Positions 2,537-35,736 of a stretch of 64,000 nucleotides of DNA are shown here, in pieces (the stretch's first letter is position 1; each line of letters starts with the position of its first letter). The notes beneath the pieces were generated by a model that was given only the letters and a program-made list of their open reading frames with translations, was not told the origin of the DNA and searched no databases. The stretch comes from an uncultured bacterium (GTDB lineage Bacteria > Desulfobacterota_D > UBA1144 > Nemesobacterales > UBA2774): the NCBI GenBank assembly GCA_963705505.1, contig CAVPJU010000010.1:384001-448000 (forward strand), given 5' to 3'. The translations under genes and the position numbers were made by a program.

Positions 2537-3151
2537 TCAGCTTCGAATTTTTTCTATGAAAATCTGGTTGTTTTTAACATAGGCTTTCTCCGGATACTCG
2601 GGTGCGTCCGATTCATCGGGTGACCTGGCTATCCATCTCGCAATCCTCAATTGCTGAGGCCTGAGCTTTAATGCTATCACAATCGCACCGTCGTCACCCC
2701 CTGCCCCGGCATGGACTATGCCCCTCAGAGTGCCCATGACGACTATATTCCCCGACGCCGTAATGTAGGAGCCCGGATTAACGTCCCCAATCACGAGCAC
2801 ATCACCTTCGTGCTCAACGTTCTGACCGCTTCTCATATTCTTATTTATAAGCTTGAGTGTCCTGACATCCTGTTTTTGGTCCGAAAGAGGGGCTTTCGAG
2901 GGTTTATCCAGCTTAAGGGACGGCTTATACCCAAGAAACCTCGTGTTCGAACTCCTTACTGCTTCCTCTATCTTCTTCATATTATCTTCGGAAATCTTAG
3001 CGCCCTCATAGTCAATGACTGCGAGAGAGCCTTTGAAAAATTCGTCCGATAGTTTGTCTTTTATCTGCGAAATATTCTCTTCCACGGACAGATTTTCATC
3101 CAGTTTGACCAATAAGGCCGGTACCGTCATGCCTTTGACTGTTATTCCCAT
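2537..3151 (-). CDS. minC: septum site-determining protein MinC
   Basis: RSGQ...GDVNPGS...GNIVVMGTLRGIVHAG beta-helix C-domain; upstream of minD. Confidence 0.95.
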   Translation of the reverse strand: MGITVKGMTVPALLVKLDENLSVEENISQIKDKLSDEFFKGSLAVIDYEGAKISEDNMKKIEEAVRSSNTRFLGYKPSLKLDKPSKAPLSDQKQDVRTLKLINKNMRSGQNVEHEGDVLVIGDVNPGSYITASGNIVVMGTLRGIVHAGAGGDDGAIVIALKLRPQQLRIARWIARSPDESDAPEYPEKAYVKNNQIFIEKIRS

Positions 3152-3465
3152 ATGGTCTCTCTAAGGTATAGAATGAAAGGTTCCCTCTCCCCAGAAAACA
3201 AATTATCATATGTTGAAAGACAACACAAGGTTGATTCGACCGAATGAGGATATTTTGAATGTACGCTTTCACCCATAGCTAATTTTTAACACCTATCAAT
3301 GACAAAATTTGCCCATTAATAATTAATTATAATTATGAGCGCTTATGTTATACTCAATCCGGAAATTAAAAACTCTTTGCGATGACCAAGGGCGTCAAGC
3401 CCGTCGCATATTGTAACCGAGTACGCCTGAAGAAGGCGTTTTATCCTCGAGTATATTCAATAAAT

Positions 3466-4464
3466 ATGTTAATCGACATACACGGACTTGTGATCAAATG
3501 TCATTCGCAATCGCCGGAGCTCCTGACAGGGCTCCTGAGACCGTTTAAGCATTTCATAAAGGATTCCGGCCCCCCTTCCGTCAACATTTTCATAAACGAT
3601 ACAGAACCCCCCTATGAAAGCTTCCCCCGGCTGAAGGCGTGTTTCTCAACGCCCCGCAACATAGTATTCAAGGGCCGCGGTCTGAAAATAATCGATTACT
3701 TCGGCAGCGGCGTGGTACTTGAAGAGGACGGAGGGCAAAAATTCACTGTATACGGGAAAGACCCGAATTTTCTTCAGGAAGCATTCTACCTCCTCGTAAT
3801 GTCGCTCTTCGGCCAGTTCTGCGACAAGAAAGGCGTGCTGAGGATACACGCCCTCACCTTCTCCTTCCGCGATACGGCAATCATATTTTCAGCGCAGGCG
3901 GGCGGAGGCAAATCCACGATGGCGTTCGGCTTATTAGAGAACAACAACTTCAAGCTGATTTCGGATGACGAGGCCATCGTGACCGAGTCGGGCCATGTAC
4001 TCCCGCTTCCCTTGCGTGTCGGGACCCTGGATGAGGACAAAATAAAATCCATACCGGACAGATACGTGTACAGGATAGACAGAATGGAATTCGGAAGCAA
4101 ATACTTTGTGGATATGGAATACTGGAATGACAGACTCGAGACGAGGGAACTCGGGAAAAAGATATACTTCATAGCTCACAGGCTTATAAACGGAGGCCCT
4201 TATATCGAAAAATCTTCCCGGTATAAGGCTGTCGTTGACCTCATGGGATCCGCTGTCATCGGTTTCGGGCTCTACCAGGGAATGGAATTCGTGTTTAACA
4301 ATCCGCCGCGGGAACTGATATCGAGATTGCCGGTCTTTCTCAGGAGGATGACCTCCGCCATAAATTTCATTAAGGGAACCGAGAGTTATCAAATATACTT
4401 GTCCAGAGACACGGAGAAAAATATCAGGGTTTTCGAGGAATTTATCCAAAACCTGAAATTATAA
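3466..4464 (+). CDS. HPr kinase-related P-loop kinase (start ATG 3466 preferred, 3382 possible)
   Basis: LRIHA...AQAGGGKST...ISDD: His, Walker A and DD motifs of the HprK/PEPCK-like kinase fold. Confidence 0.75.
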   Translation: MLIDIHGLVIKCHSQSPELLTGLLRPFKHFIKDSGPPSVNIFINDTEPPYESFPRLKACFSTPRNIVFKGRGLKIIDYFGSGVVLEEDGGQKFTVYGKDPNFLQEAFYLLVMSLFGQFCDKKGVLRIHALTFSFRDTAIIFSAQAGGGKSTMAFGLLENNNFKLISDDEAIVTESGHVLPLPLRVGTLDEDKIKSIPDRYVYRIDRMEFGSKYFVDMEYWNDRLETRELGKKIYFIAHRLINGGPYIEKSSRYKAVVDLMGSAVIGFGLYQGMEFVFNNPPRELISRLPVFLRRMTSAINFIKGTESYQIYLSRDTEKNIRVFEEFIQNLKL

Positions 4465-4466
4465 AG

Positions 4467-5426
4467 ATGAAAGACGATAAAAAGATTGTCGAAATTTCAC
4501 TGGTCATACTCACATTTAACCGCAGAGAGGGTTTAAGAAGGTGCCTCGATTCGATTTTGAAAATGGAAAAGAGGGATATACGGTTTGAGGTTATAGTTGT
4601 CGATGACGGTTCGAAAACGGACAATATTTCCATAATAAACCAATTTAACGGGTCGCTAGATGTCAGGTACTTCAAAAAAGATAACGAGGGCGTAGCCTCG
4701 ACCAGAAACTTCGGGTTAAGAGCGGCGCGCGGGGATCTCGTTGCATTCATTGCGGACGACTACAGGCTTCCCGAAAACTATTTGCCGGACGTTATGGATT
4801 TCTTCGATGCGAATCCTCATGCCTATGTTATTACGCATAATATAAACCCTACGGGCCCGAGTATATTCAGGTACGTGCAGAGACTCTATTTCCAGATGAC
4901 CCTCCTTCAGAGATTCGATGACCGGGACCTCGGGAACGACGTGGTTAAGAGCCTTGAGCTTCCGCCTTCCAGGGGAGCCGTCTTCAGGAAAGAGCTTTTC
5001 CGGCTTCTCGGCAACTTTAACGAAGACTTTCTTACCGGAGAAGACGGGGAATTCGGAATGAGGATGGCGTCCGCGGATATACCCGTGTATTTCTTCATGC
5101 ACAAATATATAGACCACTGGGAAGACAAGGGGCTTCGGGGGTATCTCTGCCAGAGGATAAGGTACGGGGGCAGCTACTACAGGGCGCTCAAGGCGCAGAA
5201 TCCGGATTCAATGGGGAAGCAGTCTCTCGGGAATGTTCTATCCTCGACCATCGAGAGGTATTACCGCTGGCTGAAACTATCCTATAAACTCCGCCGCGGA
5301 CCCGAGTATCTGGCATTATCTCCTTTCATAATTCTATTCCTCATGTTTTATTACGGCAGCTTCTATTCGGAATCGAAAAAGACCGTCGTCTCATACGAGC
5401 GTCAGGAGTCGGGCATCGGCAGGTGA
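4467..5426 (+). CDS. glycosyltransferase family 2
   Basis: VIVVDDGS, STRNFG, FIADD, GEDGE motifs. Confidence 0.92.
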   Translation: MKDDKKIVEISLVILTFNRREGLRRCLDSILKMEKRDIRFEVIVVDDGSKTDNISIINQFNGSLDVRYFKKDNEGVASTRNFGLRAARGDLVAFIADDYRLPENYLPDVMDFFDANPHAYVITHNINPTGPSIFRYVQRLYFQMTLLQRFDDRDLGNDVVKSLELPPSRGAVFRKELFRLLGNFNEDFLTGEDGEFGMRMASADIPVYFFMHKYIDHWEDKGLRGYLCQRIRYGGSYYRALKAQNPDSMGKQSLGNVLSSTIERYYRWLKLSYKLRRGPEYLALSPFIILFLMFYYGSFYSESKKTVVSYERQESGIGR

Positions 5427-10883: not shown

Positions 10884-11622
10884 TCTTTTTCTCCTTGTTA
10901 AATAAAACCTTTCTTATATCATCGAAGCTCGAGAACTCGATGAAATCTATCGCGTTCTGCGTACAGTAATCCGAGAGTCTGTTCTTCGCGAAAACTATGT
11001 CGGCTTTCCTCACGGCGCATATATCCGATTCTCCATCCCCTATGTACGTCACTGTCTTCTTCCCTTCGTATTTATCGACAATCGAACACTTGCACATGCC
11101 GCTTTTCATATAGCACTCTTTTGTCTTAAAGGGAAATGAAGGGATGGGCCTGGAGTTTCTTATTCTCAGACGGTTCGCGAAAACGGGTACGGTCGATATA
11201 CCGTTATTCAGTAAAATCAGCTTGATCAGCCAGTCAAACCCGTCGCTGACAATGTAGAAATCGATTCCGTTCTTACTTACGGAGCTCAGGAAATCCGGAA
11301 AGTACGGATCTATTTCTATATCCAGGGCGAATCTGAGAAGCTCGCGCTCATTTAAATTCTCGATACATCGGAGCTGGAGCCTCAGACACTCCTCGGAACC
11401 TATTTTGCGCTGCTCCCAGAGTTTTTCGATCTCCTTCCAACGTCTATCAGCATAGATATTTAAAAGCTTGTCCACAACATCTTCTATCGTTATCGTTCCG
11501 TCGAAGTCGCAGAAAATAGCTTCACCTATTCCGGCGGATTCGGTCACTTCTTTCCGCGCATACGGCTCGGACGGCTCAAAGTTAGTATGGTTGAATGTTA
11601 AAGCGAGATTTTTATTACTCAT
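10870..11622 (-). CDS. MtnX-like HAD-IB family phosphatase
   Basis: DFDGTIT motif I, VSDGF motif II, CKC, IGDGESD motif IV. Confidence 0.9.
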   Translation of the reverse strand: MSNKNLALTFNHTNFEPSEPYARKEVTESAGIGEAIFCDFDGTITIEDVVDKLLNIYADRRWKEIEKLWEQRKIGSEECLRLQLRCIENLNERELLRFALDIEIDPYFPDFLSSVSKNGIDFYIVSDGFDWLIKLILLNNGISTVPVFANRLRIRNSRPIPSFPFKTKECYMKSGMCKCSIVDKYEGKKTVTYIGDGESDICAVRKADIVFAKNRLSDYCTQNAIDFIEFSSFDDIRKVLFNKEKKNADR

Positions 11623-12925
11623 CGAACCTCCTCAGGACCAGAGTCACGTTCGTCCCGCCGAATGCGAACGAATTGCTGAGAGCAATTTTTATCGCCATAT
11701 CCCTCGCCTCGTTCGGAACGTAATCCAGGTCGCACTCCGGGTCCATGCTCTCATAATTTATCGTGGGAGGCACGATCCCGTGATACAAGGCGAGAACGGT
11801 GAATACAGCCTCTACGCCGCCAGCGGCGCCCAAAAAATGACCGGTCATGGATTTTGTCGAGCTGATGGGAATAAGGTATGCGTCGCTATCGAATACCTCT
11901 TTCACGGCGCGTGTTTCATTGACGTCGTTCTGGAGGGTTGAAGTACCGTGAGCGTTTATGTAATCGACGTCTTCGGGGTTGATCCCCGCGTCTCTCAGAG
12001 CCATCCTCATGCACCTGACGGGCCCGTCCGTGCAGGGCGAGGTAATATGGTAGGCGTCGCTGCTCATACCGTACCCCGGAACCTCGGCATAAATCCTCGC
12101 CCCCCGTTTTTTTGCGAATTCCAGCTCCTCGAGTATCAGGATCCCTGCTCCCTCGCCGATCACGAAACCGTCGCGATCCCTGTCGAACGGGCGAGACGCC
12201 TGCTCGGGCTCGTCATTCCTGGTGGAGAGGGCGTGCATCGCGCCGAATCCGACTATCATCGCGGGATGGACAGAGGCTTCGGTCCCCCCGGCGATAATCA
12301 CATCCGCATCCCCCCTTTCAATAGTCCTAACCGCCTGACCTATGGAGTGTGAGCTGGCAGCACAGGCTGTAGTTATACACATGCTCGGCCCTTTCGCGTT
12401 AAAGAATATCGACACGTAACCCGCCGCCATGTTCGTGATAGTTGCGGCAAGGGAGAACGGCGATACGCGGCCCGGCCCTTTCTCATAGAGCTCCGACAAG
12501 CTTCTCCACAAGGTGTCGAGCCCCCCGACCGTCGAGCTGATAAATGTGCCTGCTTTGGGAGAGAGCTCTTCGTCGATTACTAGTCCGGCATCGTCCAGAG
12601 CGAGCCTTGCAGCGGCGACTGCGAACTGAATAAACCGGTCGCTCCTCCTGGCGTCCTTAGGGTCCATGAAATCCACGGGATTAAAATCCGTGACTTCTCC
12701 CGCAATCCGGGTCTTTAGAGAAGAGGTATCAAACTTCCGAATCTGTCTTATTCCTGAATGTCCCTCACAGATTCCGTTCCAGGTTTTTTGAGTACCCGTG
12801 CCGAGCGGTGTTATGAGCCCCACTCCGGTAACGACCACTCTCCTTTTTGTCAAGTCCCGTGATACGGACTCCTTCAGAACGCGGGAGGGTTTTACAAGCG
12901 TAATAGACTGTTTATCTATTAGCAT
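11615..12925 (-). CDS. fabF: beta-ketoacyl-ACP synthase II (start ATG 12925 preferred)
   Basis: RRVVVTGVG, TACAAS (Cys), NAHGTST and MTGHFLGA (His-His), SNSFAFGG; GAGGAG SD at 12940-12935. Confidence 0.93.
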   Translation of the reverse strand: MLIDKQSITLVKPSRVLKESVSRDLTKRRVVVTGVGLITPLGTGTQKTWNGICEGHSGIRQIRKFDTSSLKTRIAGEVTDFNPVDFMDPKDARRSDRFIQFAVAAARLALDDAGLVIDEELSPKAGTFISSTVGGLDTLWRSLSELYEKGPGRVSPFSLAATITNMAAGYVSIFFNAKGPSMCITTACAASSHSIGQAVRTIERGDADVIIAGGTEASVHPAMIVGFGAMHALSTRNDEPEQASRPFDRDRDGFVIGEGAGILILEELEFAKKRGARIYAEVPGYGMSSDAYHITSPCTDGPVRCMRMALRDAGINPEDVDYINAHGTSTLQNDVNETRAVKEVFDSDAYLIPISSTKSMTGHFLGAAGGVEAVFTVLALYHGIVPPTINYESMDPECDLDYVPNEARDMAIKIALSNSFAFGGTNVTLVLRRFDE

Positions 12926-12998
12926 TTCCACACACTCCTCAATTTCGTGAATTGATTGAGTCAAATGAAAAATTCAGATCTGTTGGAACTATCCGCAG

Positions 12999-13409
12999 TT
13001 AAAGCGTGAAATAAGGAGGCGACCTTAAAGGTAGTGAAGTAAGGAACAGTACATCGGAGGGAGGCTCCATTTTATCGAACAGAGTTTCCCAGTATGGATT
13101 GATCAAAGGACGGTTAAAAATCTTAAATGCGATTTTTGAAAATATTCTGGATTGCTTTTGTACGCTATCTTGAGCTAGATTTAGTCTGGGATCTTCATTT
13201 ACGAATACGAGATCCATATCCTGGTCGTCGGCGTCGTTATCTTCAACACCGCATTTATCTCGTTTGTCCAGGGTCAATACCGAGGTGTCATAGCTTGAGC
13301 CAGTCTGCCAGAGATCCTCCTGGACATCCTGTTGCAAACTAGCCAGTCTGAATGTGCCGGTAAAAACGATTAAAGCTAAAAAAGTTAATGATCTGGTTAT
13401 ATTACTCAA
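12999..13409 (-). CDS. putative leader/arrest peptide with N-terminal hydrophobic segment and C-terminal LRSPP
   Basis: 136-aa ORF (TTG start), hydrophobic LTFLALIVF, acidic patch, ends LPLRSPPYFTL; stop 73 nt before the fabF ATG. Confidence 0.6.
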   Translation of the reverse strand: MSNITRSLTFLALIVFTGTFRLASLQQDVQEDLWQTGSSYDTSVLTLDKRDKCGVEDNDADDQDMDLVFVNEDPRLNLAQDSVQKQSRIFSKIAFKIFNRPLINPYWETLFDKMEPPSDVLFLTSLPLRSPPYFTL

Positions 13410-31727: not shown

Positions 31728-32424
31728 AAGGGCAACATGCGTGCCAACTTTCGGGAGATGAAGATAATTTTTAAAATTCAGAGTGAGTTATAATCCATTT
31801 TAATATCTATGATGTGACAGGAATTAACCCGGATTGTTCCATTCCAGACAGTGTTTATTGGAGATTCTCAAACAACGTCGACAAAATTGACTTTAGTTCG
31901 ATAGTCGTTCGAGGGAATAATTCAGATACCGAATTATGGTATATAAAATGAGTAACGGGTTACCTCTCACGGTGCATGCAAGAGCGGTGGATTTTCGAAT
32001 ATCACAACCCGCTCATGCAGTGATTATTCAGGCTTCGCTACTCATAATTTCCCCCAGATCTCTCCCGATAAATAATCAATGGATTCTTGACGCTAAGTTA
32101 TACTCGTGTATCTTAATTATGCCGACTTTGACATTCATTATCATATCGAGTCTTTTGAAACAATGTATCCAGCTCATCGAAATATCAGGCCCGAAGATTC
32201 CGGTTCAGTCATCATAGATAATGCTGCGCGGCGGAAGATTTCAACTCCAACATTTTACGAGCATCTCACGGATCGAAAACCGATTCGTAGGAATTAATTT
32301 TTTCACGCATACTTTTATCAGCGATTGAGGAAAGGATTGTTTAGGATATGATTATGATAGAACCGTTATACTTTCAAACTAAAGCTGCTAACTTAAAGTG
32401 ACCGGACTTACGAGGTGACCGAAT

Positions 32425-33078
32425 ATGGAGAGTTTAAATTTACTGGAGCTGGTTAAACAGGGCTGGATCGCCACCTACCCTCTTATTCTATGCTCCGTTG
32501 TTATGGTAGCTATCCTGGGGGAAAGAATATTCGCTTTCAGCGGAATAGCTTCTTCCACACGAAAGCTCACGAGCCTAATAGTCCCCCCACTGACGAGAGG
32601 CGACTTCAATACCGCGCTCTCGGTATGCAATAAACACAGGAAAAGTTTACAGGCAAGACTTTATCATTCCATCCTCGCGGAAGAGACCAGAATAAATCCC
32701 ATCGATGTGACAGAGCGTTTGGAAGACAACAGGTACGAGGAGGTCCAGGACCTAAAGCAAAATATCTGGGTACTCGGAACTATAGCCAGCAGCGCCCCGT
32801 TTATCGGCCTTTTCGGGACTGTCATGGGTATCATCAAATCCTTCCATAGTATGTCCATAGCCGGAACGGGCGGATTCTCCGTTGTAGCGGGCGGGATTTC
32901 GGAAGCGCTCGTCGCAACCGCCGCGGGACTCATCGTGGCTATCATCGCTGTCGTTGCGTACAATTATCTGCAAATTAAAATCGCGGGTATTAACGCAGAG
33001 CTGAAAATCAACCATTCCAAATTCATCCAGGCTTATAAACAGGGGAGTATGAACTACCATGGCGATCGGGAAATTTGA
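32425..33078 (+). CDS. exbB: MotA/TolQ/ExbB proton channel protein
   Basis: LGTIASSAPFIGLFGTVMGII...GISEALVATAAGL. Confidence 0.9.
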   Translation: MESLNLLELVKQGWIATYPLILCSVVMVAILGERIFAFSGIASSTRKLTSLIVPPLTRGDFNTALSVCNKHRKSLQARLYHSILAEETRINPIDVTERLEDNRYEEVQDLKQNIWVLGTIASSAPFIGLFGTVMGIIKSFHSMSIAGTGGFSVVAGGISEALVATAAGLIVAIIAVVAYNYLQIKIAGINAELKINHSKFIQAYKQGSMNYHGDREI

Positions 33079-33478
33079 GGAAAAGACGGACGAGGATATC
33101 GTAGCGGAAATTAATATTACGCCGCTCACGGACATATTCCTCGTACTGCTGATTATTTTCATGATCACGAGCTCGGCGCTTATCGAATCCGGCGCGAACA
33201 TAAAACTCCCCGAAGTCTCGAAAACCGAGACGGTATCGAGAAACGTCGTGGTAACCCTCACCACGTCCGGGCAAATATTCATCAACCAGAAAGAGATCAA
33301 CAAGAATGCGTTCGAAGAGGAATTAAAAAAAGCCCTATCCGAAAGCAACACCAAAGTCGTCATACTCGAAGGAGACAAGGACGCGCTTCTCGGCGACGCG
33401 GTCAAACTGATTAGCCAGGCAAAGGATGCCGGAGCCAAAGAGATAGCTATCGCCGCAGAAAAATCGCAGACACCCTGA
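33059..33478 (+). CDS. exbD: ExbD/TolR biopolymer transporter
   Basis: EINITPLTDIFLVLLIIFMI. Confidence 0.92.
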   Translation: MAIGKFEEKTDEDIVAEINITPLTDIFLVLLIIFMITSSALIESGANIKLPEVSKTETVSRNVVVTLTTSGQIFINQKEINKNAFEEELKKALSESNTKVVILEGDKDALLGDAVKLISQAKDAGAKEIAIAAEKSQTP

Positions 33479-33494: not shown

Positions 33495-34238
33495 ATGCTC
33501 TCCTCGCGGCTAAAAGCATTCATAATACTGTCACTGATACTACACGCCGCGGGCTTCGGTCTGGTCGCTTTCCTCACACCCGGAGAAGTGGACGAAAAAG
33601 CTCAGCCGCTCACGGTCGGCGTCACCACACAGTATGCCGATCCCGGGAAAGGAAAAGGGAACTCGCTCGCCCCCGCACCAATGAATCAACCCGAGCCTGA
33701 AAAAAAAGAAGTGAAGCCCCCCGAGAAGAAGGCTTTTAAGAGAGTCGTCAGGAAAACGCCGGCTAAGGAACCCGAAAAGAAAGAGATAATAAGCCGGGAT
33801 AATAACCCTGTTAACGAGCAAACGGCAGTGACGAGCGCGATCTCGTCCTCCGCAAACACCGGAGAGACGGACAACGTTTCGCCCGGGGGCACTCAGAAAG
33901 GGAGCGGAATCGGAGACAGGGGTACGGGGCTCGATACAAAGGGTTCCGGCAACGGCACTGAAATCGGCTATCCGAATTATGGACTTAACCCCAAACCTAC
34001 TTATCCCACGATAGCGAAGCGGCACGGGTATGAGGGACTCGTCGTCCTTAACGTTTTCGTCCTTGAGAGCGGAAACGTGGGAAAGATAGAAATACGGAAA
34101 TCTTCCGGATATGACGTGCTCGACAATTCCGCGCTCGATGCAGTAAGGAACTGGGTATTCATTCCGGGAAAGAGGAACGGTCAGGCGATGTCGAGCTGGG
34201 TAGTAGTACCGATAAGGTTCGACCTCACTAACGGTTAA
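33495..34238 (+). CDS. tonB: energy transducer TonB
   Basis: N-terminal TM with SxxxH, Pro/Lys/Glu-rich linker, YPTIAKRHGYEG...SSGYDVLDNSA C-domain. Confidence 0.92.
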   Translation: MLSSRLKAFIILSLILHAAGFGLVAFLTPGEVDEKAQPLTVGVTTQYADPGKGKGNSLAPAPMNQPEPEKKEVKPPEKKAFKRVVRKTPAKEPEKKEIISRDNNPVNEQTAVTSAISSSANTGETDNVSPGGTQKGSGIGDRGTGLDTKGSGNGTEIGYPNYGLNPKPTYPTIAKRHGYEGLVVLNVFVLESGNVGKIEIRKSSGYDVLDNSALDAVRNWVFIPGKRNGQAMSSWVVVPIRFDLTNG

Positions 34239-34402
34239 GTTCGATATTAGTCCCGAAGGCGGGATTAACATGACGAATTAACAGCCGCCGATAAATCTTT
34301 ACTACACCTTACCGAACCAAGCATGCCGCACTCATAATAATTGAGCCGGGATAGTATGACAAATAAATTCCGCTTGATATCGCGAAAACATAACTTACAC
34401 TA

Positions 34403-34828
34403 TTGTTACTAGAGCGTCTGAGCCAATCGATGAAAAGATTTTGCGCTTTAGAAAATCCGCGGGAATTCAGTATTAAACAACCAATAATACTTTTGTTATA
34501 TATCAGCCTTATCGGCGTTATTTCACATTACGCCTTACCCCCCGCGTCCATGGGGGAAATACGGCATCCGAGACCTATACACCTTCATGACAACATCAAT
34601 TACCCGAATTATATGGTAGAGGGAGACAATTTTATCCTCGACGACGAAACCACCAATGACTCCGATACTAAAAAAACGTTTATTCTGTTTCTTACCTTAG
34701 TTGCCAGTCTCATGACATCTTCCGAGCCCGGGTCGAAACGCGGCGCATTAAAAAGCTCGGTAAATTCGTTACATTACGATTCGACATTCGGGTATTCCCA
34801 CTTAAGATCACCTCCGTTGATCAAATAA
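34403..34828 (+). CDS. putative leader/arrest peptide with hydrophobic segment and C-terminal LRSPP (start 34403 TTG or 34430 ATG)
   Basis: IILLLYISLIGVI segment, acidic LDDETTNDSD, ends SHLRSPPLIK. Confidence 0.6.
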   Translation: MLLERLSQSMKRFCALENPREFSIKQPIILLLYISLIGVISHYALPPASMGEIRHPRPIHLHDNINYPNYMVEGDNFILDDETTNDSDTKKTFILFLTLVASLMTSSEPGSKRGALKSSVNSLHYDSTFGYSHLRSPPLIK

Positions 34829-34923
34829 AATTAATCTGGATTCAAACTTCAAACGAGATTGTCTGCGGAGGCTTTATGAGCCTATTTAAGGGTTTTATAC
34901 AAAAAACGGAGGTTTTAACAATC

Positions 34924-35253
34924 ATGAATAGAATAATCACATGTATGTTAGTAGCAGCGATGCTTTCAGTAGGAGCGCTTAATTCATTTGCCGTACAGCA
35001 CCAGCAGGGGCAGCAAGTCGCGGCCGCTGCGGCGACTACGATCACGGGTCAAATTACCAAAATAAGGAGCCATAACTTGACCGTCAAGGACCAGGCGGGG
35101 AAATTCCATGTAATAAATTACAGCAGTTCCTCGATGGTTCAGGGACTTAAGAGCGGCGACGAAGTGACCGTGGCATTCGAGAACGGAAAAGCGACTTCAA
35201 TTAAAAAGGTTGAAGGATACACTCCGGCTGCAAGCAGCAACAAACCCATGTAA
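34924..35253 (+). CDS. exported small beta-barrel (OB-like) protein (start 34924 or 34876)
   Basis: signal peptide ending SFA; TITGQITKI...LTVKD...GLKSGDEVTV; GGAGG before both possible ATGs. Confidence 0.8.
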   Translation: MNRIITCMLVAAMLSVGALNSFAVQHQQGQQVAAAAATTITGQITKIRSHNLTVKDQAGKFHVINYSSSSMVQGLKSGDEVTVAFENGKATSIKKVEGYTPAASSNKPM

Positions 35254-35264
35254 GTAAACTTTCC

Positions 35265-35296
35265 GGGAGGGGCGGGATTTAAACACCGCCCCTCCC
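35265..35296 (+). terminator. GC-rich hairpin, probable terminator
   Basis: GGGAGGGGCGG / CCGCCCCTCCC 11-bp stem just after the stop; weak U-tract. Confidence 0.55.
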
Positions 35297-35405
35297 CCCT
35301 CGATTTTCGCATATAAATCCGTAATCACTCGATACATCCAAATGTAATACACTTAAAAACGGTATAATTTCCCGGAGAGACTAAACCAAATAAAGGAGGC
35401 CCGCA

Positions 35406-35736
35406 ATGGCATTCGACGAAAAACTCGCAGGTCGTATAAGGGGGATATTTACGGGAAGGAAAGACGCGAGGGAAAAGAAGATGTTCGGGGGTATCGCTTT
35501 CATGCTGAACGGCAACATGTGCTGCGGTGTCATCAACGACCTGCTGATGGCGAGGGTGGGAGCCGACCGGTACGAAGCCGCCCTGTCTCTAGCCACATAC
35601 GAAACCCATGGACTTCACGGGCAAGCCGATGAAAGGGTATGTCTATGTCGAGCCCGAAGGCTATAAATCAGACGAAGAATTAAAAAGATGGGTCGAAAGA
35701 TGTATGGAGTTTGTCTCGACGCTGCCGGAGAAGTAA
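35406..35736 (+). pseudogene. TfoX/Sxy N-terminal domain protein with one +1 frameshift near 35591; possibly a sequencing error
   Basis: EKKMFGGIAFMLNGNMCCGV, then PHTKPMDFTGKPMKGYVYV...WVERCMEFVSTLPEK* in the next frame. Confidence 0.85.

Follow-up and report, generated by a model that had tools for sequence, protein, structure and literature searches.

A conserved leader gene ending in RSPP, with Pro-Pro codons predicted to mask the Shine-Dalgarno sequence of a small exported-protein gene

Genes at the locus

The subject of this analysis is a small leader gene, together with the gene that follows it, in a 64,000-nucleotide stretch of DNA from an uncultured bacterium of the Desulfobacterota_D lineage (contig CAVPJU010000010.1 of assembly GCA_963705505.1). 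This stretch is referred to as the window, and coordinates are positions within it unless another contig is named. The leader gene (34430..34828, + strand) encodes 132 residues ending in ...FGYSHLRSPPLIK, followed by a TAA stop codon, and it is open and syntenic in relatives with identities of 47-95%. Its C-terminus reads HLRSPPLIK, as claimed in the first-pass annotation of the window, which had proposed that a ribosome stalled on the Arg-Ser-Pro-Pro (RSPP) motif frees the next gene's Shine-Dalgarno (SD) sequence. This next gene encodes a predicted exported protein of 109 residues (34924..35253, + strand) with a signal-peptide-like N-terminus and a five-strand barrel resembling the oligonucleotide/oligosaccharide-binding (OB) fold. 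Both genes are located behind exbB (32425-33078), exbD (33059-33478) and tonB (33495-34238) on the same strand, with 190 nt between tonB and the flagged open reading frame (ORF), and a spacer of 95 nt between the leader and the 109-residue ORF. Beyond the exported-protein gene lie a GC-rich hairpin, a TfoX_N gene and, on the opposite strand, a gene for an F420H2-dependent reductase.

A putative sigma-70-like promoter (TTGATA, 16 nt, TACACT; 34374..34401, + strand) was found upstream of the leader by a consensus scan. It is part of a block, CCGCTTGATAT...TA(C/G)ACTATT, that is kept in all six loci holding that region, and its location in a conserved block suggests that the leader and the exported-protein gene are probably a two-gene unit of their own. 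The probable end of this unit is the GC-rich hairpin GGGAGGGGCGG...CCGCCCCTCCC (35265..35296, + strand), which was read from the sequence 3' of the exported-protein gene and was not called by a terminator scan because only 4 T residues follow it. The leader region has a GC content of 41-44%, which is lower than that of the adjoining genes. A search of positions 34150-35450 against Rfam gave zero matches at E-values up to 1, and this interval therefore holds no known riboswitch or leader RNA.

The leader had initially been assigned a start at TTG 34403. This start is unlikely, since the orthologue in the relative G006 has a TAG codon directly before the conserved ATG, and sequence comparison therefore favours ATG 34430 as the best start. 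A six-frame search of 41 genomes (the present genome, G000, and 40 relatives) detected the leader in three of them: in G000 itself and, at identities of 53% and 49%, in two congeneric species. The order exbB-exbD-tonB-leader-OB protein-TfoX_N-F420H2 reductase is kept in both of these species and in the metagenome contig L009. Neither Pfam nor NCBIfam contains a family that matches the leader. A three-sequence profile retrieved 13 proteins, all without names, from 5.8 billion proteins in a word-indexed search, and when 1.84 billion cluster representatives were searched exhaustively with a profile, 4 clusters only were obtained. By these searches, the leader family is small and lineage-restricted. 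In more than 10 loci the frame has stayed open at identities of about 40-55%, all indels being multiples of three, and judged from this conservation the flagged ORF is a real conserved gene.

The leader protein and its C-terminal module

Conservation within the protein was assessed in an alignment of 14 sequences, consisting of the leader and 13 database relatives. The N-terminal part carries a first hydrophobic segment, which is a putative signal-anchor (residues 17-36; 34478..34537, + strand; Kyte-Doolittle windows up to 2.47), while a second hydrophobic segment spans residues 82-98 (34673..34723, + strand; windows up to 1.97). The acidic motif EGDNFILDDE (residues 64-73; 34619..34648, + strand) has invariant G65 and D72, and D66 and D71 are nearly invariant. 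Besides G65 and D72, the invariant columns are three Leu of hydrophobic segment 2, K108, N112, Y116, Y122, S123, L125, R126, S127, P128 and P129. The sole invariant block is thus the C-terminal YS-x-LRSPP. RSPP is present in all 14 sequences. In 13 of them 2-5 residues separate it from the stop codon, which the remaining sequence has lost. The putative C-terminal arrest module KSSVNSLHYDSTFGYSHLRSPP (residues 108-129; 34751..34816, + strand) includes 10 residues that are invariant in 14/14 sequences, and the approximately 19 residues before RSPP form the best-conserved stretch of the leader. A distant branch (P0010-P0013, with 38-39% identity to the window protein) retains KGSVNSFRYDSTFGYSPLRSPPSV, and the same module recurs in remote leaders with unalignable N-termini, namely two tandem leaders on contig L015, P0016, and a leader of 131 residues on contig L023 from another genus. 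One database representative, P0015, is without the RSPP motif.

The first-pass annotation had pointed to a hydrophobic segment, a His-rich stretch (RHPRPIHLH) and an acidic patch. All three are present and the acidic patch is conserved, but the His-rich stretch is not conserved among the 14 aligned sequences. We therefore discarded both the idea that this stretch is a metal cue and its candidacy as a metal site. The alignment likewise holds no conserved Cys motif.

RSPP is found 6 times in a crude collection of 2721 ORFs of this genome. In three cases it lies 3-4 residues from the end of an ORF that has 128-141 residues, begins with a hydrophobic N-terminus and is followed by a gene in the same direction.

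Codon conservation and predicted pairing

Every sequence string quoted in the first-pass annotation was found where it had been placed. The relevant codons are AGA (34805-07), TCA (34808-10), CCT (34811-13), CCG (34814-16) and TTG (34817-19), and ACCTCCGTT (34810-34818) is exactly complementary to AACGGAGGT (34905-34913), which is the SD sequence of ATG 34924. In the RNA, the anti-SD strand ACCUCCGUU (34810..34818, + strand) is made up of the last base of the Ser codon, CCU CCG and the two first bases of the next codon. The SD strand AACGGAGGU (34905..34913, + strand) ends 10 nt before ATG 34924, which is the conserved start of the exported-protein gene and the one that gives it the signal-peptide-like N-terminus.

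The leader codons had also been described as a mimic of the 16S rRNA 3' end. Indeed, GATCACCTCC (34806-34815) equals 10 nt of the 3' end of this genome's own 16S rRNA, ...GGATCACCTCCTTT, for which a single gene was detected. GATCACCTCC occurs once in the window, while 16 of 100 shuffles contained at least one copy, and it occurs 10 times on both strands of the 2.88-Mb genome as compared with approximately 5.5 expected from length alone. The 10-mer match alone is therefore not beyond chance. The mimic framing reads too much into the match, as CCUCC follows automatically from Pro-Pro written as CCU-CCN, and only the A of GAUCA takes part in the pairing. In 4 of 10 loci the 10-mer is replaced by GATCGCCTCC or GGTCGCCTCC. 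Any strand that masks an SD sequence must resemble the 16S tail, and the resemblance is therefore a consequence of the pairing that adds no mechanism.

Codon usage was compared at 7 diverged loci. Among the 21 degenerate codon columns in which the amino acid is invariant, a single codon is kept in only 4, which are F TTC, S TCC and the two motif codons P CCT and P CCG; another invariant Pro column is written with three codons. In this genome, CCT makes up 18% of Pro codons and 28% of the first codons of Pro-Pro pairs, and CCT-CCG accounts for 11% of Pro-Pro dicodons. The motif Ser codon is TCA or TCG only, which gives an A-U (5 loci) or G-U (4 loci) pair with the facing U. In the SD strand, 8 of 9 orthologous loci and also L023 keep ACG in front of GGAGGT. 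The C of this flank mismatches the 16S tail, and the flank is therefore not explained by ribosome binding. ACGGAGGT immediately precedes the start at 9 of 10 loci, and in G006 it is placed about 45 nt further upstream. Of the 2126 starts of long ORFs in this genome, only 8 have it in front of them.

Folding of the 141 nt from 34790 to 34930, a check that the first-pass annotation had suggested, paired ACCUCCGUU with AACGGAGGU at -33.1 kcal/mol (z-score -2.55; none of 200 shuffles equalled this value). We also folded 9 orthologous sequences, each alone; these represent approximately 7 lineages, since they include two near-identical pairs. The leader strand paired with the SD sequence in the minimum free energy (MFE) structure of 8 of the 9, with per-base pairing probabilities (P) of 0.53-1.0 and z-scores of -1.3 to -3.6, and the RNAalifold consensus contained the same 8-bp helix. 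In G000 the helix was retained in the whole predicted transcript (P 0.84-0.99). A helix that masks the SD sequence, as expected of a stall-operated SD-sequestration switch, is thus predicted in silico with a length of 8-9 bp, with G006 and L023 as exceptions. It is longer than the 6-bp duplex (GGAGGU) between the SD sequence and 16S rRNA. A stalled ribosome was simulated by barring positions 34796-34826 from pairing, an interval of the size that a ribosome covers on mRNA. Under this constraint, the probability that 34905-34913 is unpaired rose from at most 0.12 to 0.09-0.92.

CCTCCG also matches an upstream copy of CGGAGG (34866..34871, + strand; 4 nt before ATG 34876), as had been noted before. 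The match is real and offers an alternative pairing partner and a competing helix, with the copy forming a small hairpin of its own in the MFE structure. The accompanying idea that ATG 34876 is a second regulated start was rejected, as neither this ATG nor its frame is conserved in relatives. In G006, the counterpart of the copy is the pairing partner of the leader strand.

The downstream exported protein

The 109-residue protein matched no Pfam family. Its match to ExtJ is weak and below the cut-off (E 3e-6, 27 bits vs 52.5), and further leads resemble DUF5666 and DUF1344. In the AlphaFold model, the core (residues 38-95) has a predicted local distance difference test (pLDDT) score above 90 and forms the five-strand barrel. 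A Foldseek search of the PDB gave no match at E ≤0.001; the weak matches listed (best E 5e-3) were all OB folds, including the periplasmic metal chaperones SilF and CusF as well as YgiW. The modelled OB fold is thus a lead rather than an assignment. The neighbourhoods of the family comprise exbBD-tonB, a gene with a TonB-dependent receptor plug domain (L023), VIT1 (L015) and CopC (next to another RSPP leader on contig C6 of this genome), and a metal-related input to the leader is therefore plausible but unproven.

Other RSPP leaders

A second leader in the window, here called leader 1 (12999-13409, - strand), encodes 136 residues with a hydrophobic N-terminus and ends in ...SLPLRSPPYFTL, written AGG TCG CCT CCT. 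It lies directly upstream of a gene for a fabF-type beta-ketoacyl-ACP synthase II (11615-12964, - strand), and its orthologue in G006 (61% identity) ends in ...SLPLRSPPYCPL before the same fabF-type gene. The codons just 3' of the Pro codons in leader 1 pair with the spacer and the start region instead of the SD sequence. A third RSPP ORF of 128 residues (G000:C6:316974-317360, - strand, corresponding to L019 1975-2361, - strand) ends in ...NTNRSPPFLIS with the codons CCT CCT, and is found upstream of a gene for an exported protein of 254 residues that is followed by a CopC-domain gene. The CCUCCUU of this C6 leader pairs with the downstream SD sequence at P 0.8-1.0. A regulator site common to the three RSPP leaders was sought with the promoter block and discarded, as the search gave only the present locus amid many one-mismatch chance matches.

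On the metagenome contig L015 (features at 1798-2199, 2345-2893, 2969-3310, 3393-3710, 3875-4372 and 4490-5158), two tandem leaders ending in ...SPLRSPP each precede one of two paralogous proteins (182 and 222 residues; no family match). Two OB-fold exported proteins are encoded between these leaders, and a VIT1 transporter gene is nearby. The L023 pair (979-1374 and 1477-1797; G012, another genus) includes a leader that was missed by the protein search and ends in ...HFGFSPLRSPPHLS. It has identical AGA TCA CCT CCG codons and a AAACGGAGGT SD sequence, and precedes an OB-fold protein that is 45% identical; a gene with a TonB-dependent receptor plug domain adjoins divergently.

Comparison with known arrest peptides

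Arrest peptides with a RAPP-like motif at the C-terminus are a class of their own that is widespread in bacteria (PMC7897499; PMC10987492; PMC12992588). According to the available portions of these reports, small proteins with RAPP or RGPP are mostly secretory or membrane proteins with the motif close to the C-terminus, and they are encoded upstream of functionally diverse genes, those for TonB-dependent receptors and copper factors among them. Regulation by RAPP-like peptides is now considered to reach many genes outside protein export. RSPP came out of random stalling screens and is described as strongly under-represented in proteomes. It has been used as a RAPP-like query motif because natural upstream ORFs (uORFs) carry it, as stated in the accessible part of that study (PMC10987492). 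Our literature search found no description of a natural RSPP leader family outside sec/yidC, nor of Pro-Pro codons that serve as anti-SD sequence, although the supplementary tables of Fujiwara may list such ORFs.

On sequence features, the leader is of the RAPP-like type. It has 132 residues (119-158 in relatives), which is below the limit of 300 set for this class, an N-terminal localisation signal as judged by hydropathy alone, and a conserved tetrapeptide by the C-terminus. The set used for comparison consisted of ApdA, ApdP, the RQH family and Streptomyces lividans RAPP/RGPP proteins (Sakiyama 2021 PMC7897499; Fujiwara 2024 PMC10987492; Fujiwara 2025 PMC12992588). In the portions of these papers at hand, the shared features are the small protein, the N-terminal localisation signal, R-x-P-P by the C-terminus, a conserved preceding stretch and a co-directional downstream gene, and uDF_RQH_Enterobacterales shares in addition a stem-loop that masks the downstream SD sequence. 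Within the limits of the same sources, the leader differs by its motif, which is RSPP rather than RAPP or RGPP and is listed as RAPP-like and partially permissive, with no characterised RSPP family described, by a downstream gene that is predicted to encode a small periplasmic OB-fold protein instead of a sec/yidC component, and by an anti-SD strand that consists of the Pro-Pro codons.

Opening of an SD-masking stem-loop by a stalled ribosome is reported as proven, in the available text, for the RGPP uORF before secDF2 and for CutF-cutO of Rhodobacter capsulatus (PMC9973294), and anti-SD-like sequences far from the ribosome-binding site are reported to pair with this site in vivo. For ApcA, ApdA and ApdP, no SD hairpin could be predicted, as far as the accessible sections of the source go. 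CutF resembles the leader, so far as the available account describes it, in being exported, in its Pro-rich C-terminus, in the downstream gene for a periplasmic protein and in the metal-homeostasis context; co-translational export and ligand sensing control the unfolding of its SD-shielding stem-loop (PMC9973294). By the same partial account, CutF differs in having a CxxxC copper site and an anti-SD sequence (CTTC) in an intergenic stem-loop, whereas the leader has RSPP, no conserved Cys motif, and its anti-SD strand inside the reading frame itself, where the ribosome would stall. CruR (Bp2923, DUF2946), which precedes the gene for the TonB-dependent transporter BfrG in Bordetella pertussis, is likewise a small exported protein with R-x-P-P three residues from the C-terminus, a fixed spacing between sensing part and motif and a TonB-system neighbourhood, but it works through Rho-dependent termination and has a CXXC copper site, as set out in the available portion of the paper (PMC9426467). 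The leader has a conserved predicted SD-masking helix instead; it matched no Pfam family, including DUF2946, at E-values up to 0.01, and has no conserved Cys of a CxxC or CxxxC kind in the 14 aligned sequences. In SecM-secA, a ribosome stalled near the 3' end of the leader disrupts an SD-sequestering stem-loop, and the arrest is released when the nascent chain engages with the export machinery (PMC10987492; PMC7897499). According to the parts of these papers at hand, SecM differs in its arrest sequence (…GIRAGP) and in regulating the export ATPase itself, and it has no homology with the leader. The leader is neither a Sec/YidC monitor nor a member of DUF2946.

A proposed stall-operated switch

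Taken together, the comparative evidence points to a stall-operated SD-sequestration switch for the small exported OB-fold protein, operating within a two-gene unit, and we regard this as a rather likely explanation. In free mRNA, the anti-SD strand would pair with the SD strand and the next gene would be poorly translated. When the leader is translated, its nascent chain would end in the RAPP-like arrest sequence ...NS-x-x-Y-x-S-x-F-G-Y-S-x-L-R-S-P-P, and the ribosome would pause at R-S-P/P, its P site occupied by CCU and its A site by CCG, in analogy to the RAP/P state of ApdA and ApdP. The paused ribosome would keep the anti-SD strand in the mRNA channel, so that the helix could not form, the SD sequence would be free and the OB-fold protein would be made. 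The length of the pause would probably be set by the fate of the exported or inserted N-terminal chain, and the pause may be ended by a pulling force (membrane insertion or secretion) or by the binding of a ligand, which might be a metal, to the conserved acidic loop. Between the end of hydrophobic segment 2 and the putative stall site (the P-site Pro) there are 28-30 residues, and the interval between this segment and RSPP is free of indels in the alignment. Reportedly, a membrane segment this far away is able to exert a pull on an arrested chain through the translocon.

The proposal that a ribosome stalled on RSPP frees the SD sequence thus has comparative and folding support, because the RSPP module and CCT CCG are invariant, the ACGGAGGT flank is kept, and the helix is found in 8 of 9 MFE structures; the arrest itself is a putative step that the motif suggests. 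Several observations weigh against this proposal. In a background control, 388 co-directional gene pairs of this genome with gaps of 40-200 nt and an SD-like motif were folded. For 18 pairs (4.6%), P of pairing between the SD sequence and the final 45 nt of the gene upstream was >0.9, and the median was 0.05. In one genome alone, the pairing is therefore roughly a 1-in-20 event, and it is the conservation across the sequences of relatives that lifts the feature above chance. RNAalifold detected no compensatory covariation in the helix, because both helix strands are invariant, which makes the covariation test uninformative. A need for particular codons or tRNAs, instead of pairing, could also account for the conservation of CCT CCG. 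In the fold that imitates a stalled ribosome, the region of the start codon is still paired with downstream sequence. The true SD sequence of G006, AAGGAGA, is unpaired (P 0.0 with the leader strand; z-score -0.2), and the leader strand of G006 pairs with the ACGGAGGU copy about 45 nt upstream. For L023, P of the helix is 0.06, 0.99 or 0.0 depending on the folded window, though both elements are conserved. The Pro codons of leader 1 pair with the SD sequence only at P 0.14-0.19, and one of the two L015 leaders has CCG CCT and is without SD pairing. In ApdA and ApdP contexts, RSPP caused partial arrest only, according to the portion of the literature available. Finally, the downstream gene does not encode a Sec or YidC component, so that a secretion monitor would have no obvious logic here.

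Few RAPP-like candidates have an established link between stalling and downstream expression, and the present family offers a compact and easily testable case, in which the stall codons are the anti-SD strand, a conserved helix is predicted, RSPP takes the place of better-studied motifs, and the two genes have their own putative promoter. An unannotated gene family is thereby given a likely regulatory role, and the small OB-fold periplasmic protein by exbBD-tonB is marked as a candidate for a conditionally expressed factor. A more far-reaching idea, which is tentative and on balance rather doubtful, is that ...NSF-x-Y-x-S-x-FG(Y/F)SPLRSPP, encoded with CCU-CCN, is a portable arrest cassette of this lineage with a built-in anti-SD that has repeatedly been joined to different sensors and targets. 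The targets would be OB-fold periplasmic proteins by TonB systems, the fabF-like synthase, the CopC cluster and cytoplasmic proteins, and the present leader would report membrane energisation or insertion, or metal, through an acidic periplasmic loop. If true, this would represent nascent-chain sensing at the scale of a regulon.

Alternative explanations

Plain translational coupling is an unlikely alternative to the switch. Here, any ribosome that finishes the leader would open the helix transiently, translation of the next gene would just track that of the leader, and the RSPP tail would be kept for a reason at the protein level. As the helix ends 8-10 nt before the leader stop codon, each terminating ribosome must unwind it, and in the RGPP case from the literature a mutant without arrest still brought about a transient opening of the stem, as far as the accessible part of that report shows. 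Coupling leaves unexplained why, in proteins that otherwise diverge fast, invariance is confined to a motif that is depleted from proteomes, with approximately 19 conserved residues in front of it, and why the motif recurs at the C-terminus of unrelated leaders.

Even less probable, in our view, is that an arrest acts on transcription, through a block of Rho or an intergenic attenuator as in CruR, with the SD pairing being secondary. A precedent is CruR, in which RAPP three residues from the C-terminus works via Rho-dependent termination, as described in the available text (PMC9426467), and several relatives have a strong GC-rich hairpin in the spacer, followed by CUUUUC in L009 and L010. Yet G000 lacks this hairpin, which varies from locus to locus, and the scan called nothing like a terminator on the + strand of the spacer behind the leader. 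The conserved elements are precisely the two complementary strands, including the SD sequence.

We give as little credit to the view that the leader encodes an ordinary small membrane protein, in which LRSPP is a motif for protein-protein contact or processing, and that the RNA complementarity has no regulatory role. The leader is without a family assignment, arrest by RSPP depends on context, and comparable SD pairings exist in the 18 of 388 gene pairs mentioned above, all of which would fit this view. It does not account for the invariance of the minority codons CCT CCG, for the non-SD flank ACG, which is kept even in another genus, or for the conserved adjacency of the leader to the OB-fold gene. 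Lastly, a chance ORF, with a coincidental CCTCC, in a spacer rich in AT would suit the 41-44% GC of the region and the chance-level 16S match. This reading is effectively refuted, because the frame stays open at more than 10 loci whose identity is about 40-55% and whose indels come in threes.

Neighbouring sequences and variants

A 151-nt contig from the metatranscriptome run X19 spans 34736-34886, and two runs labelled as cDNA, but probably DNA, bridge the end of the leader and the next start. We have given no weight to these contigs, because they cannot show strand, ends or a single transcript. Upstream of exbB, about 670 nt (window ~31750-32420; 38-41% GC) are without a convincing ORF and include several promoter-like matches. 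The TfoX_N gene (35406-35736, + strand) seems to be split by a frameshift into overlapping ORFs of 86 and 42 residues, and in relatives it is one intact ORF of 109 residues. Population variants in public runs and in L007 include an additional A in the A-run before the SD sequence (34900) and a T>C change at 34874, both of which lie outside the strands of the helix.

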